Below are positions 4,530-16,816 of a stretch of 64,000 bases of DNA, one piece after another (position 1 is the first letter of the stretch; the number at the start of each line of letters is the position of its first letter). The stretch covers positions 2,624,001 to 2,688,000 of the forward strand of contig OZ219754.1 of assembly GCA_964291295.2 (NCBI GenBank), written 5' to 3'. The position numbers and the translations under genes were made by a program. Source of the DNA: an uncultured Candidatus Binatia bacterium (lineage in GTDB: Bacteria > Desulfobacterota > Binatia > UBA9968 > JAJDTQ01). The notes under the pieces are model-generated. The model was not told the DNA's origin, did no database searches, and worked only from the letters and a program-made list of their open reading frames with translations.

Positions 4530-5627
4530 CTACGCCTCCGCGATCCCGTAGAACCGCCTGGCGTTGTCGCCCAGCATCTTGTCGGCCACCCGCTCCGGGA
4601 CATCCTCCCGGCCGCGCAGGGTGGCGGTCAGTCGGGGCTCGAAAGAGGGATCCTGGTGGCCGTAGTCCGAGCCGATGAGGAGATGGTCCTCGCCGATATG
4701 GTTCGCCAGGTAGGGGATGTCCTCGTCGGCCTCGCAGGCGACGAACAGGCGGTAGTCCTCGAACAGACCTCGGTCCGACTTGTGTTTCCAGTCGCTCTTG
4801 AGCAGCCGCTTGAGGACGTGCAGCACGAACGGCACCCAACCGGCGGAGGCCTCGATGAAGCCGATGCGCAGGCCCGGGAACTCTTCGGGTATGCGGTTCG
4901 CCACCAGGTCGCGGAAGGCGAACACCGGCAGGATACGCCCCTGTGCGAAGGAGAAGTTCCGCTCGAAGCTGAACAGGTTGATGATCGACGGCGCGCCCAT
5001 GCCGGTATGGATGCAGATGGGCAGATCCAGCCTGGCGGCTTCTTCGTAGACCGGGAAGAAATATGGATCGTCCAGGGTGCGGTCTCCCTCCATGCCGCGG
5101 AAGAAGACGCCCACGGCTCCATGTTCCCTGGCCAGCCGCATTTCGTCGATGGCGGCGTGGATGGACTGCAACGGCAGCACGGCGGTCCACAGCAGGCGGT
5201 TGCGGCCGGTGCGGTGCACCTCCCACATGTAGCGGTTGTAGGCGCGGCACAGCGCCACCTCCAGTTCCGCATCCCGGGTGAGGTAGACCAGGAACAGCGT
5301 TGGATAGATGATCTGGACGTCGATGCCGAGCCGGTCCATGTCCGCCAGCCGAACCTCGGGCCGGGTGATCTCGCGGCTGGCGATGAGGCTGTCGCTGCGG
5401 GACGACTCGAGCTTCGTGGCGGACGGCGTCACCAGACGATAACTCCCCTTGCCGTTGGGCTTGGGCACGATATTGCCGTCGATGAGCCAGAAGGCGTTGC
5501 GGGGGCCGTAGAGGGTATCCTCGGGCACCGAGGCCAGCACCGGCCGGCGCGCGTACATGCCCGCGTCCATGTGTTTCCACATGGCTTCGGGTTCGGCGAT
5601 ATGAGTGTCGGAATCGATGATCGTCAT
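4530..5627 (-). CDS. amidohydrolase family protein
   Basis: IIDSDTH, IYPT, CIHTG, EASAGW and GSDYGH motifs. Confidence 0.85.
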   Translation of the reverse strand: MTIIDSDTHIAEPEAMWKHMDAGMYARRPVLASVPEDTLYGPRNAFWLIDGNIVPKPNGKGSYRLVTPSATKLESSRSDSLIASREITRPEVRLADMDRLGIDVQIIYPTLFLVYLTRDAELEVALCRAYNRYMWEVHRTGRNRLLWTAVLPLQSIHAAIDEMRLAREHGAVGVFFRGMEGDRTLDDPYFFPVYEEAARLDLPICIHTGMGAPSIINLFSFERNFSFAQGRILPVFAFRDLVANRIPEEFPGLRIGFIEASAGWVPFVLHVLKRLLKSDWKHKSDRGLFEDYRLFVACEADEDIPYLANHIGEDHLLIGSDYGHQDPSFEPRLTATLRGREDVPERVADKMLGDNARRFYGIAEA

Positions 5628-7543: not shown

Positions 7544-9301
7544 TTGCTTTCTGAACCTTCCTCCCGTCCGGATCCGCAGCCCCGCGCGGTCCTTGCCCGG
7601 TATCGCGGCGCATTGATCGTGGTGGGTCTGCTGAGCGCCGCGGTGAATCTCCTGCTGCTCACCGGGCCACTTTTCATGCTGCAGGTCTACGACCGGGTGC
7701 TGGCCAGCCGGGCGGAGGCGACGCTGGTCGTGCTGTTTGCCATCGTGGTCTACCTCTACGGATTGAAGGGCCTGCTTGATGCCCTGCGCGGGCGCATCCT
7801 GGGGCGGGTCGGGGCGGGATTCCAGAGTGCGCTCGACGAGCGGGTATTCGATGCATCGCTCCGGGCGGAGCGCGAGCGCCCGGGGCAGGCGCTTCAGGAG
7901 CTTGAGATGGTGCGTATGTTCCTGGCCTCCCCGGCGCCGGGGATGATCCTGGATCTGCCCTGGATGCCGTTCTTCGTCGCCATCATCTTCATCTTCCATC
8001 CACTGCTGGGGTGGCTGGCCGTGGCGGGTGCGCTGGTGCTGGTGGCGCTGGCGCTGGTCAACCGGTGGGCGACGCGCAAGTCGCAGCAGCAGGCCGCCCA
8101 GCTGTCCGTGGACGCGAACCTCCGCGCCGTGGAGGCGCACCGCGAGATGGAGACGGTGCGGAGCCTGGGCATGACCGGCCCGTTGCGCGCGCGTTGGAAG
8201 GCGGTGCGCGAGACAGCGATGGACTGGGGGATGCAGGCCTCGGACGTCGGCGGTGGCTACACGGCGGCGAGCCGGGCGTTCCGTCTGCTGCTGCAGTCGG
8301 GGATGCTGGGGCTCGGCGCGTGGCTGGTGCTGGAGGGCGAATTGACGGCGGGGGCGATGATCGCGGCCTCGATCCTGCTCGGTCGGGCAATGCAGCCGCT
8401 GGAGGGGGTGATTTCGCAATGGCCGATGATCCAGCGGGCGCGGGCGGGCTGGTCCTCGGTCTCGCGGCTGCTGGCGCAAGCGCCGCCGACGGTGCCGTCG
8501 ATGGCGCTGCCGCGGCCTGCATCGCATCTGCTGGCGAGCAATGTGACGGTGTTGTCGCCGGACCGTCGGGATGTGCTGCTGCGCGGCGTGAGCTTCGATG
8601 TGGTGCCGGGTGAGGCGGTGGCGGTGGTGGGTGCGAGCGGCGCGGGCAAGTCGACGCTGGCAAAGGCGCTCGTCGGACTGTGGCCGCTCGCGCAGGGCGA
8701 GGTGCGTCTGGGCGGGGCGGAACTTTTGGCTTGGGGGGAGGCGCTGTGGCGCGAGCATCTGGGTTATCTGCCGCAGGACGTGGCGCTCTTCACCGGCAGC
8801 GTGGCGGAGAACATTGCGCGCTTCGACCCCGAAGCCAACGAGGATGGGGTGGTCCGGGCGGCGATGGCGGCCGGGGCGCATGAGATGATCCTGTCGCTGC
8901 CCGACGCCTACGACACGGTGCTCAAGAACGGCAGCGGAGTTTCGGGCGGGCAGCGCCAGCGCATCGGCCTTGCGCGGGCGCTCTACGGCAATCCGGTGCT
9001 GTTGGTGCTGGACGAGCCGGACGCGAGCCTGGACGACGTCGGCGCGCAGGCGCTGAACCGGGCCATCGCCGAGGCGAAGAAGGCCGGGAAGGCGGTGGTG
9101 GTCATGGCGCACCGGAGTTCGGTGCTTGCGGAATGTGAGCGGATCGCGGTGCTGGAGGGCGGGCGGCTGCGGATATTCGGACCAAGTTCGAAGGTGCTGG
9201 CACGCCTTTCGGGTGCCCGGCCGCGACTGGCCGCGGAGGGAGGGCGCAGGGCAATCGCGACGGGTGCCGCGGCCCCGGAAGCGCCGTCGGACGATGACTG
9301 A
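7544..9301 (+). CDS. prtD: type I secretion ABC permease/ATPase, PrtD/AprD family
   Basis: LFMLQVYDRVL N-terminal signature, DLPW, GAMIAASIL, Walker A GASGAGKST, SGGQRQR, LVLDEP; no C39 domain. Confidence 0.9.
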   Translation: MLSEPSSRPDPQPRAVLARYRGALIVVGLLSAAVNLLLLTGPLFMLQVYDRVLASRAEATLVVLFAIVVYLYGLKGLLDALRGRILGRVGAGFQSALDERVFDASLRAERERPGQALQELEMVRMFLASPAPGMILDLPWMPFFVAIIFIFHPLLGWLAVAGALVLVALALVNRWATRKSQQQAAQLSVDANLRAVEAHREMETVRSLGMTGPLRARWKAVRETAMDWGMQASDVGGGYTAASRAFRLLLQSGMLGLGAWLVLEGELTAGAMIAASILLGRAMQPLEGVISQWPMIQRARAGWSSVSRLLAQAPPTVPSMALPRPASHLLASNVTVLSPDRRDVLLRGVSFDVVPGEAVAVVGASGAGKSTLAKALVGLWPLAQGEVRLGGAELLAWGEALWREHLGYLPQDVALFTGSVAENIARFDPEANEDGVVRAAMAAGAHEMILSLPDAYDTVLKNGSGVSGGQRQRIGLARALYGNPVLLVLDEPDASLDDVGAQALNRAIAEAKKAGKAVVVMAHRSSVLAECERIAVLEGGRLRIFGPSSKVLARLSGARPRLAAEGGRRAIATGAAAPEAPSDDD

Positions 9302-10595
9302 GCCCAAGCGCAAGACCTGGTCGGTGGGCGGTCCGATGCGGCTGGGCCTGCTGCTGCTCGTGGTGGGGTTCGTCGGCGTGCTGGCCTGGGCCTCGGCGGT
9401 GCAGATCCACGGCGCGGTGATCGCGCCGGGAAGTGTCGAGGTGGAATCACGGCGCCAGGCCGTCCAGCATCCCGACGGCGGGATCGTGGCGGCGCTTCCG
9501 GTGCGCGAAGGCGCGCGCGTCGAGGCGGGGGCGGCCATCCTGGAACTCGACGCCACCGACTTGGCCTCCGAAAAGGCGCTTCTGATGCGGCAGTTGCAGG
9601 AAGTGCGGGCACGTATCGACCGTCTCTCGGCCGAGGCCCGGGCCAGTGAAAAGGTCGTGTTCCGAGATGCGGCCGCGGCGGTGAACGACCCGGTGCTCGC
9701 GACGCTGCTGGCTGACGAGCGGACCCTGTTCGAGACCGGCCGCGAGTCGCTGCTGCAGACCGTCAAGCAGATCAGCCAGCGCAAGGCCTCCACCGTGGCC
9801 TTCATCGAAGGGCTGCGGCTGCAGCTGGAGGCGGCCCGGGATCAGCAGGCTCTGGTCGGTTTGGAAGCCCGCGCCAAGGAGAAACTGCTGGAGAGGGATC
9901 TGATCCCCAAGCCGGAGGTTTGGCGACTGCTCCGGGACGAGGCTGAGTTCAAGGGCGCCCTCGGCAAGCTGAATGCCGAGGTTGCACAGGGCCGGAGCAT
10001 GATCGCCTCCTACGAAATCGAACGGCTGCGCATCCTGGCGGAGCGGCGCGAAAAGGCCCAGGGCGAGTTGCGCGAGCTGCAGCCGCGCGAGGCCGAGCTT
10101 GCCGAGCGTCTCCGGGTGGTGGAGACTCGCCTGTCGCGGCTCGTGCTGCGCGCGCCGATGGCGGGGGTGGTGCACGGGCTCAGGGTGTTCACCGTGGGCG
10201 GGGTGATCCCGGCGGGTGCGGAGGTGGCGACGATCGTGCCCGAAGGGGTGCCGCTGGTGCCCAGGGTACGGGTTGATGCGAGTCAGATCGATGAAGTTCG
10301 GGCCGGGCAGGACGTGACCGTGCGGTTCCCGGCGTTCAACTCCCGCACCACACCGGAGTTTACCGGGCAGGTGCGCACCGTGTCGGCCGACGCGCTGGTG
10401 GACGAGGCCAGCGGCGTCCGCTACTACACTGCGGAGATTACGTTGAGCGGAGAATCGGAAGCGGAGGTCCGCGCGCGCGGCATCGTACCCGGCATGCCGG
10501 TCGAGGCGTTTATCCGCACGCGCGCCCGCACACCGCTCGCCTTCCTGCTCAATCCCTTCACCGACTATATTCGCCACGCCTTCCGCGAGGAGTGA
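9294..10595 (+). CDS. prtE: HlyD/PrtE-family type I secretion membrane fusion protein
   Basis: Start MTEPKRK overlapping the prtD stop; TM helix, VQHPDGGIV, coiled coil, LRAPMAGVV, PGMPVEAFIRT...FREE. Confidence 0.9.
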   Translation: MTEPKRKTWSVGGPMRLGLLLLVVGFVGVLAWASAVQIHGAVIAPGSVEVESRRQAVQHPDGGIVAALPVREGARVEAGAAILELDATDLASEKALLMRQLQEVRARIDRLSAEARASEKVVFRDAAAAVNDPVLATLLADERTLFETGRESLLQTVKQISQRKASTVAFIEGLRLQLEAARDQQALVGLEARAKEKLLERDLIPKPEVWRLLRDEAEFKGALGKLNAEVAQGRSMIASYEIERLRILAERREKAQGELRELQPREAELAERLRVVETRLSRLVLRAPMAGVVHGLRVFTVGGVIPAGAEVATIVPEGVPLVPRVRVDASQIDEVRAGQDVTVRFPAFNSRTTPEFTGQVRTVSADALVDEASGVRYYTAEITLSGESEAEVRARGIVPGMPVEAFIRTRARTPLAFLLNPFTDYIRHAFREE

Positions 10596-11047
10596 GAAGC
10601 CCTGCGGGAATCAGTACGGGTAGTCAAGGTGCAGGTGACGCCGGTTCCGGGCAGGCCGCAGCACACCACCCGCACCGGACCACTGCCCTGACTGGCTTGC
10701 GGTCCATTCGAGGAGCGTTGCGAGATCGCCCTGAAGGGGCTGGCCCATATCGACCAACCATATCCATCGGTCGGCCGGGAGCGGCGTCGCGTTGCGAGAA
10801 GCCCGCGAATTCCTCGTCCGTCAGCCCGGCGCGCCAGCCGACAGCGGTTGGCAGCGCGCCCATCCCTCCGGCAGAACCGTTTGTTCCGCGCTCTTGGGCG
10901 ACCGGGGGTGTGCGCTGTGGAGCGGCCGAAACGCGCTGCTCCCCTCAGGCAGTCCGACCGTCCTGACGCCGCTGTTTTGGCCGCGGCCGGTGACTTTGGC
11001 TATCCTTCCGCGGCATGCCCGTCTTTTCCCGACGTCGATTCGCCGTC

Positions 11048-11791
11048 ATGCACCTCGAAACCCTGCTGATCATCTTCGTGGCCCTGGCCGCCGGAGCGTT
11101 CTCGAAAGGGGCCACCGGCATGGGTCTTCCGCTCATTGCCGTACCCATCATGGCGGGTTTCCTGGGCGCACAGCAGACGGTCATCGTCATCACGGTCCCC
11201 AATCTGGTAAGCAACTTCTGGATCATCTGGTCCTACCGGTCCAGGTTCCACACCGTGCCGAGACTCGTCTCCTCCACCTTGGCGGGCGCCTTGGGGGTGG
11301 CCGCCGGCACCTGGTTCCTGGCGACATCCGACGAGCGCCTGCTCACCCTGGTGCTGGCGGTTTGCGTAGGCTCCTATCTGGTTCTTCTGGCTTTCAGGAT
11401 CGACCTGCGCTTCTCCGGCCGGCCCGGCCGCATGCTCTCCCTCCTCCTTGCCGCCGCGGCCGGTGTATCCCAAGGGGCCACCGGCATGTCCAGCGCGGTG
11501 GTGGTGGCGTGGGCACGGGCGTTCGGCCTGGAGAAGGAAGGGCTCATCCTCGCGGCGTCGACCCTGTTCCTGGGTCTCACCACGACGCACTTTCTTTTTG
11601 TGCTGGCCGCAGGGCTGTTCGACCGGCAGCTTCTCGGCCAAGCATTCCTTGCGGTGGTTCCCATCGCGGCGTTCCTGCCCCTGGGCATGCGCGTGACCCC
11701 CTACATCAGCAGGCATTGGTTCAACCGGATCATCGTGACCCTGATCGTGGTGATGGAGGTCAGGCTGATCTGGCGGGGGGTCATGGAGTAG
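11048..11791 (+). CDS. TSUP (TauE/SafE) family transporter
   Basis: AGAFSKGATGMG repeated in the second half (AGVSQGATGM); about 8 hydrophobic segments. Confidence 0.75.
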   Translation: MHLETLLIIFVALAAGAFSKGATGMGLPLIAVPIMAGFLGAQQTVIVITVPNLVSNFWIIWSYRSRFHTVPRLVSSTLAGALGVAAGTWFLATSDERLLTLVLAVCVGSYLVLLAFRIDLRFSGRPGRMLSLLLAAAAGVSQGATGMSSAVVVAWARAFGLEKEGLILAASTLFLGLTTTHFLFVLAAGLFDRQLLGQAFLAVVPIAAFLPLGMRVTPYISRHWFNRIIVTLIVVMEVRLIWRGVME

Positions 11792-11894
11792 CATGAGGCA
11801 GGAACGCGCCGGCCTCCTTGCGGGTGTGCGGTTCGCACCGGAGTTGCCGGGGTTCCGAGCCGGGCATGCTGTTCCGAGCCACAGGTTTTGCCGG

Positions 11895-11910
11895 TCCCGC
11901 GAAAGCGGGA
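11895..11910. terminator. hairpin between TSUP gene and the original argC 3' end
   Basis: TCCCGC-GAAA-GCGGGA stem-loop between convergent stops (11791 and 11930). Confidence 0.4.
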
Positions 11911-11929
11911 AGCCGGAAGCGGCTCGGGG

Positions 11930-11958
11930 TCAGCCGGGCAGGTGAGCGGTCTCGGGGA
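11930..11958 (-). other. displaced original 3' end of argC (PETAHLPG*) including left target duplication
   Basis: Joining 15685 to 11950 restores in-frame ...NLMLGLPE-TAHLPG-TGA; left copy CTCGGGGA at 11951-11958. Confidence 0.75.
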
Positions 11959-11982
11959 GAGGATTATATACGATAGTGCCGG
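11959..11982. repeat. terminal inverted repeat (left end) of IS1595-like element
   Basis: Core ATATACGATAG shared in inverted orientation with 15667-15677, at the same offset from the target duplication. Confidence 0.8.
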
Positions 11983-11991
11983 GATCGCCTG

Positions 11992-12150
11992 TCAGGATGG
12001 GCGGTCCTTCCACTTGATGTTGACGGGATTCAGCACGGCGCGCGCCAAGTTCTTCGGGGGCGGCTTCGAGCCGTCCATTTTCCGAATGTCGATTTCTTCC
12101 TTCATGTCCGCCTTGCTCGGCTGGCAGGACGAGCGAACCCGGATGACGGA
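11992..12150 (-). pseudogene. small ORF remnant next to the element end
   Basis: Reads VRSSCQPSKADMKEEIDIRKMDGSKPPPKNLARAVLNPVNIKWKDRPS*; protein-like composition but no clear start. Confidence 0.35.
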
Positions 12151-12159
12151 GCGAGGCCG

Positions 12160-12620
12160 TGCGACCGAATTTTGCGGTTGGCCATTCCATGATCTCCCGT
12201 TGATCGGCTTCGATGCCCGACGCACTTGCGCTTTCAGCGAGATTCGGCCCGGAGGCTCCTGCACGATGTTCTTTGCACCTTGATTGCAGATTGCAGATAC
12301 TGCACGAGGCGCGCAGGTTATCGACGCTATCACTCCCGCCTTGGGCCTTGTCCACGATGTGGCCGACATGAAGGCGCGCGGGACGCCCGGACCGATCATC
12401 GGGGTCGCCTGCCGCGATACCGCACATTCTGCAAGTGTATCCGTTTCGCTTACGAACCTCTGCCAGCGTCCTGGAACTGATATTCCGGGCAAACTGCATC
12501 GGCGGTTTTGACGGCGGCCATGTCACAAGCCGGTACTCCCCGGCTTGAGGTCGGCAGAATCGTCGTGCGACTGGATCGGCCAGCCTTCTTCATCGCGCAG
12601 TTCCCGCAAGCGGCGGCGGC
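12160..12620 (-). pseudogene. HNH endonuclease (restriction-type), frameshifted
   Basis: Pieces in three frames: RRLRELRDEEGWPIQSHDDSADLKPG / RNGYTCRMCGIAAGD...LHVGHIVDKAQGGSDSVDNLRASCSICN / QGAKNIVQEPP. A 7-bp duplication TTGCAGA at 12284-12297 breaks the frame. Confidence 0.75.
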
Positions 12621-13170
12621 AGTGCATTGTCGATCTGGCGGCACTGTTGCGTCTTGCCACCGTAGAACGCCCAGTCATCGGGGAAGCTCTGTATGCGGGC
12701 GACCATGCGTGCCATGAGCCTGAGAACGCCGTCGAATCCTGGGGAGAGGGGGATTCGCCATGCCGAGGCCGTCAACGCCAAGCGCCGCCCAAGCCTCGCG
12801 CGCGCGAGGGATCGAGATCAGAGCCGCCATGCTTCTTTGGCCCGCCAACAATGGTCGGGGCCACCCTGTTGGCGCGCGCGGCCCATGCCGCCGCACCCTG
12901 CCAGCCGTTGGCCGCCGTCAAATCGCCCAGCGTCTCACCGCGCGTCCAAGGTCGGGAACGGCCACTCCAGCGCGCCGGTAGTGCCTTCCCGAAGCGCGAT
13001 CAGGAACACACGGGAGCGCGTTTGCGGTGTGCCGAAGTCGGCAGCGTTGAGCGTCGCCCAGCAAGACGTGAAGCCCATTGTCTGCAAAGCCGAGTCAACT
13101 CGCGCCCGCACACCGTCGAACTTGGCGTGAAGCAGGCCGCGCGCATTCTCGACCAGCACGGCGCGCGGGC
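12590..13170 (-). pseudogene. DNA (cytosine-5) methyltransferase fragments
   Basis: Motif VI VLVENARGL, motif VIII NAADFGTPQTRSRVFLIALR, TRD APTIVGGPKKHGG, motifs IX-X RMVARIQSFPDDW...RQIDNALPPP. Motifs I-IV absent; several frameshifts. Confidence 0.8.
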
Positions 13171-13448
13171 TGTTCTGCGCACTTGATGCCGACCGGGCCA
13201 GCCACTACTGGCGCACGCCCGAGGCGGGCGGCACGGTGGACAAGGACAAGCCGCCCCCGGTCGGCCGGGCCCTGATCTTCTCCGCCTGCGGCAATACCTG
13301 CCGCAGGCGGAGCGGGCGGGCCGGCAAGCCGGTGCCGCTGGTCGCCGAGGCCCGGAAGGCGGCGTCTGCCTGATGGAGTTGCAGGAACAGGGCTGGACTA
13401 CATCCGGCCATGGCACCCGCCGCCGGAGCTCCCGGCCGCACCAAGGCA

Positions 13449-14501
13449 CTAGACAAATATGAAATCGCCTTCGGTGAGCGAGTCCGCCGCTACATCCAGC
13501 AGCGTCACCGTGTCGCCGGCGCCGCCGTAGGCGACCACGGCGTTGCCGTCGTCGTTGTCCGCGATCGTCAGCCCGCTGAAATCGTGGCCGACCTCGATCA
13601 GGCGGATCGTGTCGCCGTCCCCGAAGTCGCGGACCGTATCGGCGCCGTCGCCCTTGCGAAAGGCGAAGGTGTCGTCGCCCTTGCCGCCGCGCAGCGTATC
13701 GGCGCCGGTGCCGCCATAAAGGGTGTCGTCGCCCTTGCCGCCGCCCAGCATGTCGTCGCCGACACCACCGAACAGGACATCGTCGCCCTTCTTGCCCCAG
13801 AGAGTGTCGTCGCCGTCCTCGCCATACAGCAGGTCGTCTTCGCCGTGGCCCCTGATGGTGTCGTCGCCGGCGCCGCCGTAGATCGTGTCGCGGCCGAAGG
13901 CGCCGTGGAGCGTATTGTCGCCGTCGCCGCCGCGGATGGTGAAGCCGATGCCGGAGGCCTTGAATTCGGCCAGACTCCACCCGTCGAGCTGGACGGTGCC
14001 GCCGCCGTCGCCGCTGGCCCTGTCAAGGTCATACCAGGAGATGGGAGAACTCAGGTAGTCGGCGAAATAGCTGTGAATGGTGCCGTCGTCCGTCCCGCCG
14101 TCGCCGTAGACGATGACGACATAGCCGTCGCGTCCGAGGAAATGGCCGTCGCGTTCGACGATCCGGAAGCGGCCGACCTTCGCGTCGCCAAAGATGAACT
14201 CGATCGTGTCGCGCGCCTCCAGGTCGTGGATGAGGTCGAAGCCGTCGCCGAGGCGGAAGACGAAGGTGTCGTGGCCCTGGTAGAAGTGGCCGCTTCTCTT
14301 CCAGTCGCCCTGGAGCCAGTCGTTGCCCTTGCCGCCGTCGAGAGTGTCGTCCTGACTGCCGCCTACCAACATGTCGGGGCCGCCCCGGCCGTAGAGCTTG
14401 TCCCTGCCCCCGGTGCCGCCATAGAGAAAGTCTGCGCCTTCGGTGCCGTGGAGCGTATTGTCGATCCAGGATCCGATGATTCTTTTATAACCCACCGTCA
14501 T
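13449..14501 (-). CDS. RTX / hemolysin-type calcium-binding repeat protein
   Basis: Many GGxGxDxLx nonapeptides in two blocks; C-terminus ...ADSLTEGDFIFV resembles a T1SS secretion signal; GGAG RBS upstream. Confidence 0.85.
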   Translation of the reverse strand: MTVGYKRIIGSWIDNTLHGTEGADFLYGGTGGRDKLYGRGGPDMLVGGSQDDTLDGGKGNDWLQGDWKRSGHFYQGHDTFVFRLGDGFDLIHDLEARDTIEFIFGDAKVGRFRIVERDGHFLGRDGYVVIVYGDGGTDDGTIHSYFADYLSSPISWYDLDRASGDGGGTVQLDGWSLAEFKASGIGFTIRGGDGDNTLHGAFGRDTIYGGAGDDTIRGHGEDDLLYGEDGDDTLWGKKGDDVLFGGVGDDMLGGGKGDDTLYGGTGADTLRGGKGDDTFAFRKGDGADTVRDFGDGDTIRLIEVGHDFSGLTIADNDDGNAVVAYGGAGDTVTLLDVAADSLTEGDFIFV

Positions 14502-15065
14502 TCCTCCGTTGGAACAGGCCGCCTCGGCCGCTGCCGCGGGCGGCCATGGTATGGGAGCCGTCCTCCCCCAGGTATCGAAATGGCATGGACGGTGTCGTCG
14601 TCCGTGCCGCCGTCGCCGTAGATGATGACTCCATAGTCGTCGCGCTTGATGAACCGGAAGCGGCCGACGTCCTCGTCGCCCCAGATGAACTCGATGGTGT
14701 CGTGCATCTCCAGACCGGAAATGTAGTCTTGGCCGTCGCCGCGGCGGAAGATGCAGGTGTCGGCGTCCTCGCTGCCCCTGAGCCAGTCGTTGCCCTTGCC
14801 GCTGTCAAGAGTATCTTTGCCCCCATCGCCGTCCAGAAGGTCATGGCCGTCCTCGCCTGACAGCATGTCGTCGCCCCCTGTTGCCAACGAGCCAGTCCTT
14901 GCTTCCGCCGCCGTAGATACGGCCGTGTCCAGTCAGGCCATTGAGATAGTCGTGGCCGTCCTCGCCATGCATTGCGTCGTTCCACCAAGGTCCGCGCCGT
15001 CCCTTGAAATCGGTCTTTGCCGCCTCCCGCAAAGATCTCGGTTCAGGTCTCGGTTTGCACGTCAC
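14498..15065 (-). pseudogene. degenerate RTX protein paralog
   Basis: GEDGHDYLNG / GGDDMLSGEDGHDLLDGDGGKDTLDSGKGND repeats split over frames; shares the DTIEF..GD..VGRFR...YGDGGTDD block with 13449-14501. Confidence 0.7.
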
Positions 15066-15099
15066 GGTGGATTATACCGGAACGCCGGCGCCCTGCAAG

Positions 15100-15595
15100 G
15101 GCCGGCAACGCAGCCTTCCGCTTGGAGCGCGGCAGATTCTTCCGCTTCCTGCCGATGCAGGTTCGAGCACCTCGACCGGCCCGGCAAAGGACGCATCCTC
15201 ACACTTCCACGATTCCCGAATGCCATGCGCCAGATGCTACGCCGCCTTCTGCGTGATCTTCGGATCGCGGTGCCGCTTCATGCTGCTGAGGCCCTTCCGG
15301 TTCGCCGCCAACAGGTAGAAGGTGATGGCCCAGACCTGGTATCCGAGATTCGACGCCTGCATGGCCGCGCCGGTGCGAACGCTGAACCGCTTGCCGATCC
15401 CCTTTCGCGGCATCGGTGCGTCATGGTCTTGTGCGTGATCGGGTGCTGGACATTCACCGAACCGCAGTGCGCGCCGTCCGGCCAGCGCCGCTTGATGAAC
15501 CATGCTTCGGCGGTCGCATCGTCCGGGAACCGGCGCATGGTCGCGATAGGCGGGATTACCTGCCTTCGATGCTTGCCCGGTGCGTTGTGTGCCAT
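15100..15595 (-). pseudogene. IS1595-family (ISXO2-like) transposase remnant
   Basis: MAHNAPGKH...FPDDATAEAWFIKRRWPDG..HCGS (Zn ribbon), KRFSVRTGAAMQASNLGYQVWAI...KGLSSMK.HRD..ITQKAA*HLAHGIRE...FAGPVEV. Frameshifts, a W-to-stop change, and the remaining DDE domain is missing. Confidence 0.85.
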
Positions 15596-15660
15596 TCCTC
15601 TATCTTCTTGCTTGCAAAAGAAAATACAGGAAGAGGCCGGGGGAAGGGGGCAGTGTCGAT

Positions 15661-15684
15661 TCGGCGCTATCGTATATGACTCCC
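15661..15684. repeat. terminal inverted repeat (transposase-proximal end) of IS1595-like element
   Basis: TCGGCGCTATCGTATATGACTCCC, inverted match to 11959-11982; followed by duplication CTCGGGAA at 15685-15692. Confidence 0.8.
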
Positions 15685-16620
15685 CTCGGGAAGGCCGAGC
15701 ATGAGGTTCAGGTTCTGGATGGCGACGCCGCTGGCGCCCTTGCCGAGGTTGTCGAGGAGTGCCACCAGCAAGGTGTGTCCCGAGGGGTGGGGAAGCACGT
15801 GAAGCTCCACGCGGTTGGTGTCGTTGCACGCCCGCGGGTCGAGGCTGCGCTCATGGGCCGCGCGCGGGTCCGGATGGGGCACCACCCGCACGAAGGGCTC
15901 GCCCGCATAGCGGTCCCGCAGGCACTCCAGGATGGCCGAGCTGGTGCCGCCCGCGGGCAGCAGACCCAGGGGAATCGGCACCTCCACCCGCATGCCGCAG
16001 CGGAAGGGTCCCACCGCCGGCACGAACTGCGGCTCCAGAGTGAGTCTGCCGTAAGCCATCATCTCGGGGATGTGCTTGTGGCGCGCTCCCAGAGCATAGG
16101 GGGCTTCGTAGGGCAATGAGCCCAGCCCGCGCTCCGGGCTCTCCCATTTCTCGATCAGTCCGCGCCCACCGCCGGAATAGCCCGACAGCGCATGAATGGA
16201 CACCGGGGTGTCCTGAGGCAGGAGCCCGGCGTCCACCAGCGGTCGGGTCAACAGGATGACGGCCGAGGGATAACAGCCGGGGTTGGCCACGAATCGGGCT
16301 TCGCGGATGGCGTCCCGCTGCCCGGCATCCAGTTCCGGCAGCCCGTAGGTCCACCCATGGGCGACCCGGTGGGCGGTGCTGGCGTCGATGACCCGGGTGC
16401 CCTCCGCAGCGGCCCATCGGGCAGCCTCCGGCGCCGCGTCGTCCGGCAGGCACAGCACGGTCACGTCCGCCGCCGCGATGGCGTCATGGCGCGCCGCGCC
16501 GTCCTTGCGCCGCCCTTCGTCCAGCGTGGACAGATCGATATCCTGGCGTCCCGCGAGCCAGTCGCGTATGCGCAGCCCGGTGGTGCCCGCATGGCCGTCT
16601 ATGTAGATTCTGGGCGGCAC
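15667..16620 (-). CDS. argC: N-acetyl-gamma-glutamyl-phosphate reductase (type 2 ArgC)
   Basis: IYIDGHAGTTGL, DASTAHR, ANPGCY, SGYSGGG, DNLGKGASG motifs; last 5 residues are encoded by the IS inverted repeat. Confidence 0.92.
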   Translation of the reverse strand: MPPRIYIDGHAGTTGLRIRDWLAGRQDIDLSTLDEGRRKDGAARHDAIAAADVTVLCLPDDAAPEAARWAAAEGTRVIDASTAHRVAHGWTYGLPELDAGQRDAIREARFVANPGCYPSAVILLTRPLVDAGLLPQDTPVSIHALSGYSGGGRGLIEKWESPERGLGSLPYEAPYALGARHKHIPEMMAYGRLTLEPQFVPAVGPFRCGMRVEVPIPLGLLPAGGTSSAILECLRDRYAGEPFVRVVPHPDPRAAHERSLDPRACNDTNRVELHVLPHPSGHTLLVALLDNLGKGASGVAIQNLNLMLGLPEGSHIR

Positions 16621-16816
16621 GGAATCGTCCGGACCCCGCCGCGGTGCGCGGCAGGGGCAGAGAGATGAACCTGCCGGAACAACTTATCAGAAAACCCCAC
16701 CTGTTGACATGCGGCTTTACGACGCCGCGGGGAATTGCTAGTTCTTGCTTCCAGTTCGCCGCCTGCGCGCGCATGGCGACGGCGGGGCCAGTTCAGCGAC
16801 CGCCAAGGAGGAAAGA

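Follow-up and report, generated by a model that had tools for sequence, protein, structure and literature searches.

Probable relic of an IS1595-family transporter insertion sequence in argC of an uncultured Candidatus Binatia bacterium, with remnants of a restriction-modification passenger and a later RTX block

The 3,726-bp insert at positions 11959-15684 of the window (the whole 64,000-nucleotide stretch of contig OZ219754.1 analysed in this study) is probably the relic of a single insertion of an IS1595-family 'transporter IS' that carried a restriction-modification (R-M) passenger and whose middle was later replaced by a block containing RTX genes. Imperfect inverted repeats were found at both ends of the insert, flanked by an 8-bp target duplication (CTCGGGGA at 11951-11958 and CTCGGGAA at 15685-15692) matching at 7 of 8 positions. 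The coordinates of the element, both ends and the duplication had been predicted exactly from the sequence, and the IS1595-type insertion proved to be real. The following features were distinguished in the element and its surroundings:

11015..11791, plus strand: TauE/SafE-family exporter gene (Pfam PF01925, 73.7 bits), the conserved left neighbour, adjoining argC in same-genus relatives
11930..11950, minus strand: displaced original end of argC (…ETAHLPG, stop), severed from the gene, sharing its reading frame with the tail of ORF 11930-12526 and recognised from the argC C-termini of relatives
11951..11958, no strand: left copy of the target-site duplication, CTCGGGGA, the octamer being single-copy at the junction in 13/13 relatives
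11959..11982, plus strand: terminal inverted repeat, transposase-distal, recognised from the IS1595 end of a relative (L018) and the termini of the clade
12211..12690, minus strand: frameshifted remnant of an HNH restriction-nuclease gene (Pfam HNH PF01844, 33.2 bits, cut-off 21.4)
12605..13177, minus strand: 5'-truncated, frameshifted remnant of a C5 cytosine DNA methylase gene (PF00145 profile positions 107-165 and 277-315)
13164..13274, plus strand: internal fragment of an ISNCY-family transposase (tblastn to L021:2883-3989, 62% identity, E 5e-11)
13449..14501, minus strand: intact gene, an open ORF, for a 350-aa RTX repeat protein (PF00353, 133.1 bits, seven stretches)
14498..15065, minus strand: decayed RTX paralogue, corresponding to the N-terminal half of the intact gene (ORFs 14498-14887 and 14841-15065, both matching PF00353)
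15065..15595, minus strand: IS1595-family transposase remnant, N-terminal ~186 residues (tblastn; PF12760, 17.5 bits), with two frameshifts and one stop
15661..15684, minus strand: terminal inverted repeat at the end where the transposase starts, recognised by repeat search and occurrence of the core 11-mer
15685..15692, no strand: right copy of the target-site duplication, CTCGGGAA, at the boundary of the relatives' homology and identified by their octamer
15667..16620, minus strand: argC (TIGR01851, 373.9 bits, cut-off 229.85; profile positions 2-310 of 310)

The empty site was present in all 13 same-genus relatives examined, in which the TauE gene is followed by a short spacer and the 3' end of argC with one copy of the octamer, this being the order (TSUP, then argC) proposed as a check in the original prediction. 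Homology of the relatives to the window begins at 15684-15686 in 20 of the 22 genus genomes with an argC match. The C-termini of the relatives' argC products read …LGLPETAHLP[D/N/E/G], followed by a stop, and are matched by 11930-11950, while the last six residues of argC in the window are swapped for five encoded by the element end (…LGLPE-GSHIR, stop). As argC is still open, the gene, which is the only close argC copy in the genome, appears to have survived the insertion. Both ends and both internal junctions are bridged by short-read contigs (from two runs of a single study, the source sample perhaps among them); positions 13607-14243 are covered by fragmentary contigs only. Among the read joints shown, all of which lie inside the RTX repeats, there was none corresponding to the empty site. 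The G+C content ranges from 59% to 71% across the element, and its parts are not separated by the G+C profile.

The two terminal repeats share 18 of 24 positions (counted by eye), or 19 of 30 over 30 nt, and the repeat search returned their core as 16-nt arms with 94% complementarity (pair I8). The length of the repeats alone is unremarkable, since 42 inverted pairs were recorded by the same search in the 6-kb stretch; the distinguishing feature of this pair is its A+T-rich core. Exactly two copies of the core 11-mer ATATACGATAG exist in the 3,703,023-bp genome of 66% G+C, one at each end of the element. Within the window, the two matches compare with 0.05 expected, and none of 100 shuffles reached two.

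Members of the IS1595 family are recognised by an N-terminal zinc ribbon (PF12760) and a DDE domain (PF12762 or homology to NF033547). Residues 1-154 of the transposase remnant are 48-52% identical to the intact transposases of two genus relatives, L016 and L017 (tblastn, E 1e-16 to 7e-36), which score 180.5 and 178.9 bits on NF033547 (cut-off 75); the direct zinc-ribbon match of the remnant is weak (17.5 bits, cut-off 25.4). The tblastn alignment stops at residue 154, and the remnant was followed by eye to residue ~186, where it abuts the decayed RTX gene. Nothing aligns past this point of the ~325 residues, leaving the DDE domain incomplete; the missing catalytic domain means that the copy is dead and is no proof of a different ancestry. 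Transposase homology, the 8-bp duplication and the terminal repeats all agree with the IS1595 family. In addition, positions 11961-11980 of the left end match an IS1595 end in L018 at 20 of 20 positions; this relative was left out of the verified elements, having two ends 2.7 kb apart and no clean duplication. The insert has only a single IS1595 transposase remnant and a single pair of ends, which is not the make-up of a composite transposon, and one duplication encloses the whole 3,726-bp unit, as in a transporter IS. According to ISfinder, the ISNwi1 group has 'ggnnatTAT' ends and 8-bp repeats, and its 'ISNwi1+' class comprises elements of 1.75-4.75 kb with passengers. The ends of the window element presumably match this consensus.

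To place the element among its relatives, the 80 loci most similar to four transposases from this genus were surveyed, a set that is not a random sample of the family. The relatives have termini of the type GGG[A/G]ATTATATAC, to which the window ends GAGGATTATATAC and GGGAGTCATATAC conform, and an inverted-repeat pair was located in 58 of the 80 loci. Among these 58, a perfect 8-bp duplication was detected in 42 and one with at most one mismatch in 44, compared to 0/58 in a shifted-flank control. The 44 verified relatives are 1249-5434 bp long; ten are bare (1249-1410 bp), and 34 of at least 1.5 kb (1.5-5.4 kb) carry cargo. Two cargo-bearing copies of 1536 bp (L055 and L058) lie in one genome within different perfect duplications, and other transposons are nested inside three verified relatives (L037, L068, and L094). 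The duplications of the relatives average 82% A+T, unlike the G+C-rich target octamer of the window element. Passenger carriers are common, and R-M genes are the most frequent recognisable cargo, with methylase and/or restriction-nuclease genes (NotI, BglII, Mrr, HNH, GmrSD, and REase_II domains) in 12 of the 34. These lie downstream of the transposase in the order methylase, then nuclease, as in the window. In 14 of the 34, the cargo had no family match. Clade relatives were also frequent in metagenome-assembled genomes of many phyla, most surveyed copies having 1-4 kb of cargo inside verified duplications; this cargo shows an enrichment of defence genes, methylases and restriction nucleases among them.

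No close second copy of the element was detected in the genome by blastn and tblastn, the sole matches being a distant IS1595-like gene (C1:182919-183742) and a C-terminal fragment (C1:1184985-1185294); an intact IS1595 transposase able to act in trans was likewise not found in this genome. The C-terminal fragment was considered as the excised middle of the window element and rejected, as the genes that come after it encode an N6_N4 methylase and a BglII-type nuclease, not a C5 methylase. An inverted-repeat-like match in L193, located within an unrelated ORF, was discarded as a chance occurrence.

The R-M remnants were compared with an intact type II module of another genome of the phylum (G306, locus L123). 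The HNH remnant corresponds to residues 48-172 of the 189-aa G306 homologue, with a frame change near 12526-12541 (by eye), and the methylase remnant to residues 102-298 of the 325-aa homologue, residues 1-101 being without counterpart; three frame changes and a QIGNA motif altered to QIDNA were noted by eye in the latter. The methylase is therefore incomplete, lacking the N-terminal motifs, and its remnant starts, at residue 102 of 325, directly against the ISNCY fragment. Despite its frameshift, the HNH domain lies beside the methylase on the same strand and in the order of L123. The nuclease is ~48-53% and the methylase, over residues 102-298, 35% identical to the G306 proteins, and methylase is followed by HNH in both; unlike in G306, no Vsr remnant was recognised in the window, the methylase is without its first ~101 residues, and both genes are frameshifted, rendering the module non-functional. 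Searching the HNH fragment against 400 other genomes of the phylum yielded nine matches, and the best two (G306 and G341) have a C5 methylase beside the nuclease and no clear IS1595 context. The intact methylase-HNH-Vsr module of G306 adjoins a long ORF, putatively encoding DNA polymerase III alpha (by eye), and no IS1595-type end was detected in the 12-kb locus. A metagenome scan brought up 548 relatives of the nuclease; beside the 80 that most resemble the G306 protein (the ranking did not use that of the window), neither an IS1595 transposase nor an RTX gene was encountered (0/80 each). No sibling element with the same C5-methylase and HNH cargo was found in the phylum-genome and metagenome searches.

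These observations bear on the possibility that a bare IS1595 element of ~1.3 kb hit argC and that everything else, including the R-M genes, entered afterwards. Ten of the 44 verified relatives are indeed bare, and the C5-methylase and HNH family is widespread without IS1595, as the metagenome loci and the G306 module demonstrate. However, both R-M remnants are collinear with the transposase, and that of the nuclease reaches the distal repeat, like the cargo of the relatives. R-M genes also follow the transposase in L016 and L017 and in a second remnant in this genome (L209), where an N6_N4 methylase and a BglII-type nuclease are present. Moreover, a further insertion would have had to hit the interval from the transposase stop to the repeat, which is short in the bare relatives, given their total length of 1249-1410 bp. 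Late entry of the R-M genes is therefore considered unlikely. The C5-methylase and HNH-nuclease pair is plausibly the original cargo; as to which inner genes were aboard at insertion, we infer the R-M pair from position, collinearity and the habit of the clade.

The remaining inner part is a 1.9-kb block of both RTX genes and a fragment of an unrelated ISNCY transposase, which leaves the IS1595 transposase cut off near residue 186 and the methylase without the part before residue 102. The gene content given in the original prediction stood with regard to the HNH and C5-methylase pieces, the intact and decayed RTX genes and a weak IS1595 zinc ribbon; its minus-strand 'small ORF' turned out to be the ISNCY fragment on the plus strand. 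This fragment covers residues 164-200 of 368 of a reference that scores 330 bits on NF033594 (L021:2883-3989) and so falls short of a complete ISNCY transposase gene; the genome has no other ISNCY-like piece. The two decayed RTX ORFs are in different frames, implying at least one frameshift, and the paralogue is 60% identical to RTX residues 29-144, with DNA repeats of 77-82% (D4 and D5) to 14074-14278. By eye, the non-RTX remnants contain at least seven disruptions in ~1.6 kb, compared to none in the 1053-bp RTX ORF; in the strain of a second sample, the HNH and ISNCY remnants have deletions of 7 nt and 4 nt. That the RTX ORF has stayed intact might be due to selection and not to a recent arrival. 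Its product has calcium-binding nonapeptide repeats (PF00353), as do RTX substrates of type I secretion, and an ABC transporter gene (7544-9301) and an HlyD-family gene (9126-10595) are located 1.4-4.4 kb upstream of the element. Unlike such substrates, the 350-aa protein is small and has no recognised enzymatic or pore-forming domain, all NCBIfam matches being far under their cut-offs. Among 300 other genomes of the class, one full-length orthologue was found (G484, 65.6% identity over 346 aa), with no IS1595, ISNCY, methylase or HNH match in 18 kb around it and none to IS1595 within 8 kb. No orthologue at E<=1e-30 was present in 27 other genomes of the genus, and the source of the block was not traced within the genome.

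The original prediction favoured a single unit moving RTX and R-M genes together, i.e., transposition of the whole 3.7-kb unit into argC as it stands, by its own transposase before that decayed or by one provided in trans. In line with this proposal, every recognisable gene apart from the ISNCY fragment is on the same strand, there are one pair of ends and one duplication, relatives reach 5.4 kb, and the nested transposons in three of them indicate that complex cargo travels. However, the block cuts both transposase and methylase, so that no self-mobile version would hold it in this form, and carriage of a nuclease that lacks its methylase would be harmful. Movement of a defective element in trans is conceivable in principle; no intact transposase for such action exists in the genome. 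Furthermore, none of the 73 cargo ORFs in the 34 cargo-bearing relatives has RTX repeats, the G484 orthologue has no IS1595 context, and the RTX ORF is intact among neighbours full of frameshifts. Joint transport is accordingly very improbable. Since the block with its ISNCY fragment cuts off the IS1595 transposase and the methylase, the RTX genes most likely came in later, as a replacement within a dead element, and the caveat in the original prediction, that they entered afterwards, is the better reading of the truncating block and the RTX-free relatives.

The history of a transporter IS with an R-M passenger may be pictured as follows. An IS1595-family DDE transposase would have cut the last codons of argC with an 8-bp stagger, where a unit of an estimated ~2.6 kb was presumably inserted, with the minus-strand order inverted repeat, transposase, C5 cytosine methylase, HNH restriction nuclease, and inverted repeat. 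The element end would have supplied five codons and a stop, so that argC stayed open. Later, the 1.9-kb block would have replaced the middle, from about transposase residue 187 to about methylase residue 101, the likely route being an ISNCY insertion followed by deletion or recombination. The remaining transposase, methylase and nuclease have decayed by frameshifts, and the element is no longer mobile. That the two repeats are unrelated (chance, ends of two insertions, or a composite transposon) and the region a junkyard is scarcely credible: the repeats are only 18/24 identical, inverted pairs abound (42 in 6 kb), and at least three mobile-element remnants are present, but the exact empty site in 13/13 relatives contradicts it, as do the break of the relatives' homology exactly at both ends, their one octamer equalling both flanking copies, the confinement of the core 11-mer to the two ends in 3.7 Mb, and the presence of only one IS1595 transposase remnant inside.

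Passenger-carrying 'transporter IS' forms of the IS1595 family are mentioned in PMC3129680, which cites Siguier, Gagnevin and Chandler 2009 (Res Microbiol) for them. The window element resembles them in its 8-bp duplication, short terminal repeats starting GG..ATTAT, one zinc-ribbon transposase, and passengers between transposase and distal repeat; it differs in being dead, with half of the transposase deleted, the rest frameshifted and foreign DNA in the middle. Transposon-like R-M units with imperfect terminal repeats and an 8-bp duplication, recognised against an empty site in a related genome, are reported by Furuta, Abe and Kobayashi 2010 (PMC2853133), including a Neisseria gonorrhoeae unit that also has a decayed gene with a transposase motif. 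These units share with the window element R-M genes inside imperfect repeats, the 8-bp duplication and the empty site in relatives, and differ in their 26-bp and 65-bp repeats and other R-M types. For the window element, by comparison, the transposase family and many active-looking relatives are identified, and the R-M pair is decayed. R-M cargo on elements of this sort has been described before in that paper. The parts available of PMC7371123 and PMC10214660 contain nothing on IS1595 passengers, and the listed titles and abstracts on ISSod11/ISNwi1, IS1595 in sponge symbionts and defence cargo offered nothing relevant. Both IS1595 elements with passengers and R-M units of transposon type flanked by 8-bp duplications have precedents in the literature, and the window element is an ordinary relic. 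The locus itself is thus of little import, being a well-documented fossil of a known mobile-element type, and the failure of RTX and R-M co-transport removes the main reason for interest in it.

The cargo pattern of the clade may merit a systematic look. Should it be borne out by a sample free of bias, small elements with a single transposase would constitute an under-counted path by which defence genes move between distant bacteria. It is possible, and in our view rather doubtful, that the GGG[A/G]ATTATATAC clade is mainly a cross-phylum shuttle for R-M and other defence genes instead of a plain IS with occasional passengers, the window element being a shuttle that lost its mobility at this site, with its shell later reused for an RTX gene near a lineage-specific type I secretion cluster. 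In the survey, 34 units carried cargo and 10 were bare; R-M, BstA-like or PDC-S05-type genes were present in at least 14 of the cargo-bearing units, and the hosts, by record titles, span many phyla.

The 3.7 kb insertion between the TauE/SafE exporter gene (11015..11791, plus strand) and argC (15667..16620, minus strand) had been described as retaining both ends and its target duplication in readable form, and the following terminal features bear this out, the two octamers differing by one substitution:

11951-11958, left target-site duplication, CTCGGGGA
11959-11982, left terminal repeat, GAGGATTATATACGATAGTGCCGG
15661-15684, right terminal repeat, imperfect inverse of GAGGATTATATACGATAGTGCCGG
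15685-15692, right target-site duplication, CTCGGGAA

The terminal repeats were identical at 18 of 24 positions as counted by eye and at 19 of 30 over a longer stretch, and an inverted-repeat search recovered their core as 16 nt at 94% (pair I8). Since the same search returned 42 inverted pairs in the 6 kb around the element, repeat length alone is no proof. The core is A+T-rich, which makes it conspicuous against the 66% G+C genome, and ATATACGATAG was found exactly twice in all 3,703,023 bases, both times at the ends of the element; 0.05 matches were expected by chance in the window, and none of 100 shuffles reached two. Elsewhere in the genome (G000:C1:1245007-1245037), a 24-nt stretch matched window 11966-11989 at 22 of 24 positions (blastn E 0.28; approximately 26/31 by eye). 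This match takes in the core of the repeat and the first internal bases, lies just upstream of an ATG, and is either a solitary end left behind by a lost sibling or a coincidence.

The empty site was sought in 41 genomes using window 11000-16700 as query. TauE gene and argC were adjacent in the genus, and homology started at query positions 4685-4687 (window 15684-15686) in 20 of the 22 genus genomes featuring an argC match and at position 4696 in the remaining two, while two incomplete genomes gave weak matches only, elsewhere. Base-by-base comparison of 13 same-genus argC loci (L002-L014) revealed that the left flank joins the right flank directly in all 13, with a single octamer, namely CTCGGGAA (three loci), CTCGGGGA (two), CTCCGGCA (six), CTCCGGAA (one), or CTCCGGTA (one). 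The predicted junction of the TauE region with argC is therefore present in relatives and, together with the flanking octamers, defines the insert as 11959-15684 (3,726 bp), flanked by a genuine 8-bp duplication in which one substitution has occurred since. The insertion also altered argC: its product ends in …LGLPETAHLP[D/N/E/G]-stop in the 12 of 13 loci read (L003 not included) and in …LGLPE-GSHIR-stop in the window, the final codons being supplied by the element's end, and the orphaned ETAHLPG-stop is still located at 11930-11950. As the window argC scored 373.9 bits over the whole TIGR01851 profile and the genome contains no other close copy, its product is probably functional.

The interior of the element comprises the following features, ordered from the right end:

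15595 down to ~15065, minus strand, IS1595 transposase remnant, running to approximately residue 186
15065-14498, minus strand, decayed RTX paralogue in two frames
14501-13449, minus strand, intact RTX gene (350 aa), its start overlapping the stop of the preceding ORF
13164-13274, plus strand, ISNCY transposase fragment, residues 164-200 (62% identity, E 5e-11)
13177-12605, minus strand, C5 methylase remnant, beginning at homologue residue 102 (of 325), three changes of frame seen by eye
up to the left repeat, minus strand, frameshifted HNH nuclease remnant, residues 48-172 of 189

The order on the minus strand is accordingly transposase, decayed RTX, RTX, C5 methylase, and HNH nuclease, with the ISNCY fragment on the opposite strand between RTX and methylase.

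Aligned with the intact transposases of genus relatives, the transposase remnant showed 48-52% identity across residues 1-154; by eye it could be followed to approximately residue 186 and is disrupted by two frameshifts and an in-frame stop. These intact proteins scored 180.5 and 178.9 bits on the NCBIfam IS1595 model and 128.8 bits on PF12762; the window's own zinc-ribbon match remained below threshold (17.5 vs. 25.4 bits). The IS1595 end at locus L018 of a genus relative was identical to the element's left end at 20 of 20 positions. In the ISfinder listing, the ISNwi1 group has 'ggnnatTAT' ends and 8-bp repeats, and one of its classes, measuring 1.75-4.75 kb, carries passengers. L018, L019, and L020 have in common a TTGACA hexamer between the proximal repeat and the transposase start codon, and behind it the inner half of the repeat recurs in part, in inverse orientation; this arrangement may represent a promoter that overlaps with a binding site for the transposase. 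L018:3418-6145 (genome G010) carries two matching ends 2.7 kb apart without a clean 8-bp duplication, enclosing a frameshifted transposase and a second ORF with weak retropepsin-like matches, all near or below the Pfam cut-offs.

An alignment of four intact IS1595 transposases (A2) was searched against the genome_contigs collection, yielding 577 relatives among 604 candidate stretches. The best 80 of the 577 (L033-L112) originated, by record titles, from metagenome-assembled genomes of many phyla, the closest being titled Candidatus Binatia. Inverted GGG[A/G]ATTATATAC ends flanked the transposase in 58 of these best 80 loci, among which 8-bp duplications were perfect in 42 and had at most one mismatch in 44, compared to 0/58 in a control with the right flank moved by 20 nt. 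The relatives' duplications were on average 82% A+T (at least 6/8 A+T in 36 of 44), so that the G+C-rich target in the window is atypical. Several genomes hold two to three copies of one unit, each with a different perfect duplication (L055/L058, 1536 bp; L070/L073/L077, 1351 bp; L063/L065, 1344 bp; L083/L103, 1410 bp), which suggests recent activity.

The 44 verified units ranged from 1249 to 5434 bp; ten were bare (<1.5 kb) and 34 contained extra DNA downstream of the transposase. All 73 cargo ORFs of these 34 units were scanned with Pfam and 61 of them with PADLOC, the 12 omitted being short ORFs, obvious nested transposases, and one duplicate. The cargo was distinguished into the following groups:

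DNA methylase domains: L035, L039, L054, L066, L071, L072, L078, L097; fragment in L087
Restriction-type nucleases: NotI (L035); HNH (L042, L066, L072, L097); REase_II (L054, E 5e-79); GmrSD_C (L059); Mrr (L071, L078); BglII (L110)
Other defence-type cargo: L069 (KilA-N/BstA), L093 (RhuM/PDC-S05), L048 (SocA antitoxin domain), L046 (SNase)
Nested unrelated transposase: L037, L068, L094

In total, 12 of the 34 units carried a methylase and/or a restriction nuclease, and 14 had no cargo family match in the Pfam and PADLOC scans. Defence-gene cargo may be clade-wide across phyla, the sample of 80 loci being biased. Among genus relatives, an N6_N4 methylase directly follows the transposase in L016 and L017, fused to an Mrr domain in the latter. 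Furthermore, the window's own genome harbours a second dead IS1595 unit (L209, G000:C1:1183552-1185294), consisting of a C-terminal piece of a transposase (residues ~224-324) and, behind it, two open ORFs, one for an N6_N4 methylase (368 aa, 177 bits) and the next for a BglII-type nuclease (204 aa, 134.6 bits); the ends of L209 were not found. An intact counterpart of the window's module in genome G306 has the order methylase, HNH nuclease, Vsr. The identification of IS copies with passenger genes, termed 'transporter ISs', is credited in PMC3129680 to the work of Siguier, Gagnevin and Chandler (2009) concerning the IS1595 family. Furuta et al. 2010 describe restriction-modification (R-M) units bounded by imperfect inverted repeats, their 8-bp duplications having been confirmed by comparison with empty sites; one of the units contains a decayed gene with a transposase motif (PMC2853133). 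Published accounts thus exist both of this kind of element and of its carriage of R-M genes.

The window insert is thus a real IS1595-type cargo element, as originally proposed, and the R-M genes are probably its cargo; the further claim that RTX protein and R-M module moved together in one unit was not supported, as the RTX genes most likely entered later. Given that the transposase ends at approximately residue 186, the methylase begins at residue 102, and an ISNCY fragment lies inside, the block 13164-15065 interrupts both genes and adds a piece of a second IS family. Without this block, and with ~140 transposase and ~101 methylase residues restored, the element would measure ~2.6 kb by our arithmetic, in the middle of the relatives' size range. 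RTX repeats were found in 0 of the 73 cargo ORFs of the 34 verified units. The ISNCY reference protein scored 330 bits on NF033594, and no ISNCY-like sequence besides 13164-13274 was detected in the genome. Just past the last aligned ISNCY residue, where the DNA loses its resemblance to the L021 ISNCY gene, lies a perfect inverted repeat of 14 bp with a 5-nt loop (13280-13312, pair I14), which may be a small palindromic insertion.

At least seven disruptions were counted by eye in ~1.6 kb of non-RTX remnants, and at this rate an undisrupted 1053-bp ORF is expected, by our estimate, approximately 1% of the time. This leaves two readings for the RTX gene: either it postdates the death of the element, or selection acts on it. 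The assembly was supported at both ends and both inner junctions by contigs from two runs of one study (X1 and X2, one possibly being the source sample), which bridged 11700-13607 and 14243-15900; cover of the RTX repeats (13607-14243) was fragmented. X1 showed zero differences. X2 represents a slightly diverged strain with the same element. It differs by substitutions at 12451, 12944, 14683, 14686, and 15606 and by two deletions, one of 7 nt in the HNH remnant (12282) and one of 4 nt in the ISNCY fragment (13262); deletions of this sort are expected in dead sequence.

The C-terminal 160 residues of the RTX protein resembled ten other places in the genome (54-60% identity), and at E<=1e-30 none of 27 other genus genomes contained a match. 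For the N-terminal half, one orthologue was detected in 300 other class genomes (G484, 65.6% identity over 346 residues), with no IS1595, ISNCY, methylase, or HNH match in its 18 kb neighbourhood. Hence the gene travels, though not visibly with the IS1595 element. A first-look search returned 70 RTX-like candidates in the window's genome versus 0-11 in the 27 others, located on C1, e.g., at 133763-134212, 498176-502066, 664-668 kb, 699-702 kb, and 3599-3601 kb. A large inverted duplication is suggested by two of the matches, 666113-666580 and 700395-700862, which lie on opposite strands and agree in all their statistics.

Window 7544-10595, immediately upstream of the TauE gene and 1.4-4.4 kb from the element, encodes an ABC transporter (PF00005 and PF00664) and an HlyD-family protein. 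Counterparts beside the TauE gene were absent in five same-genus relatives; the search of these returned two weak matches in all, both at distant loci and both to the query's ABC-transporter region. The region looks like a candidate lineage-specific type I secretion cluster near the RTX gene.
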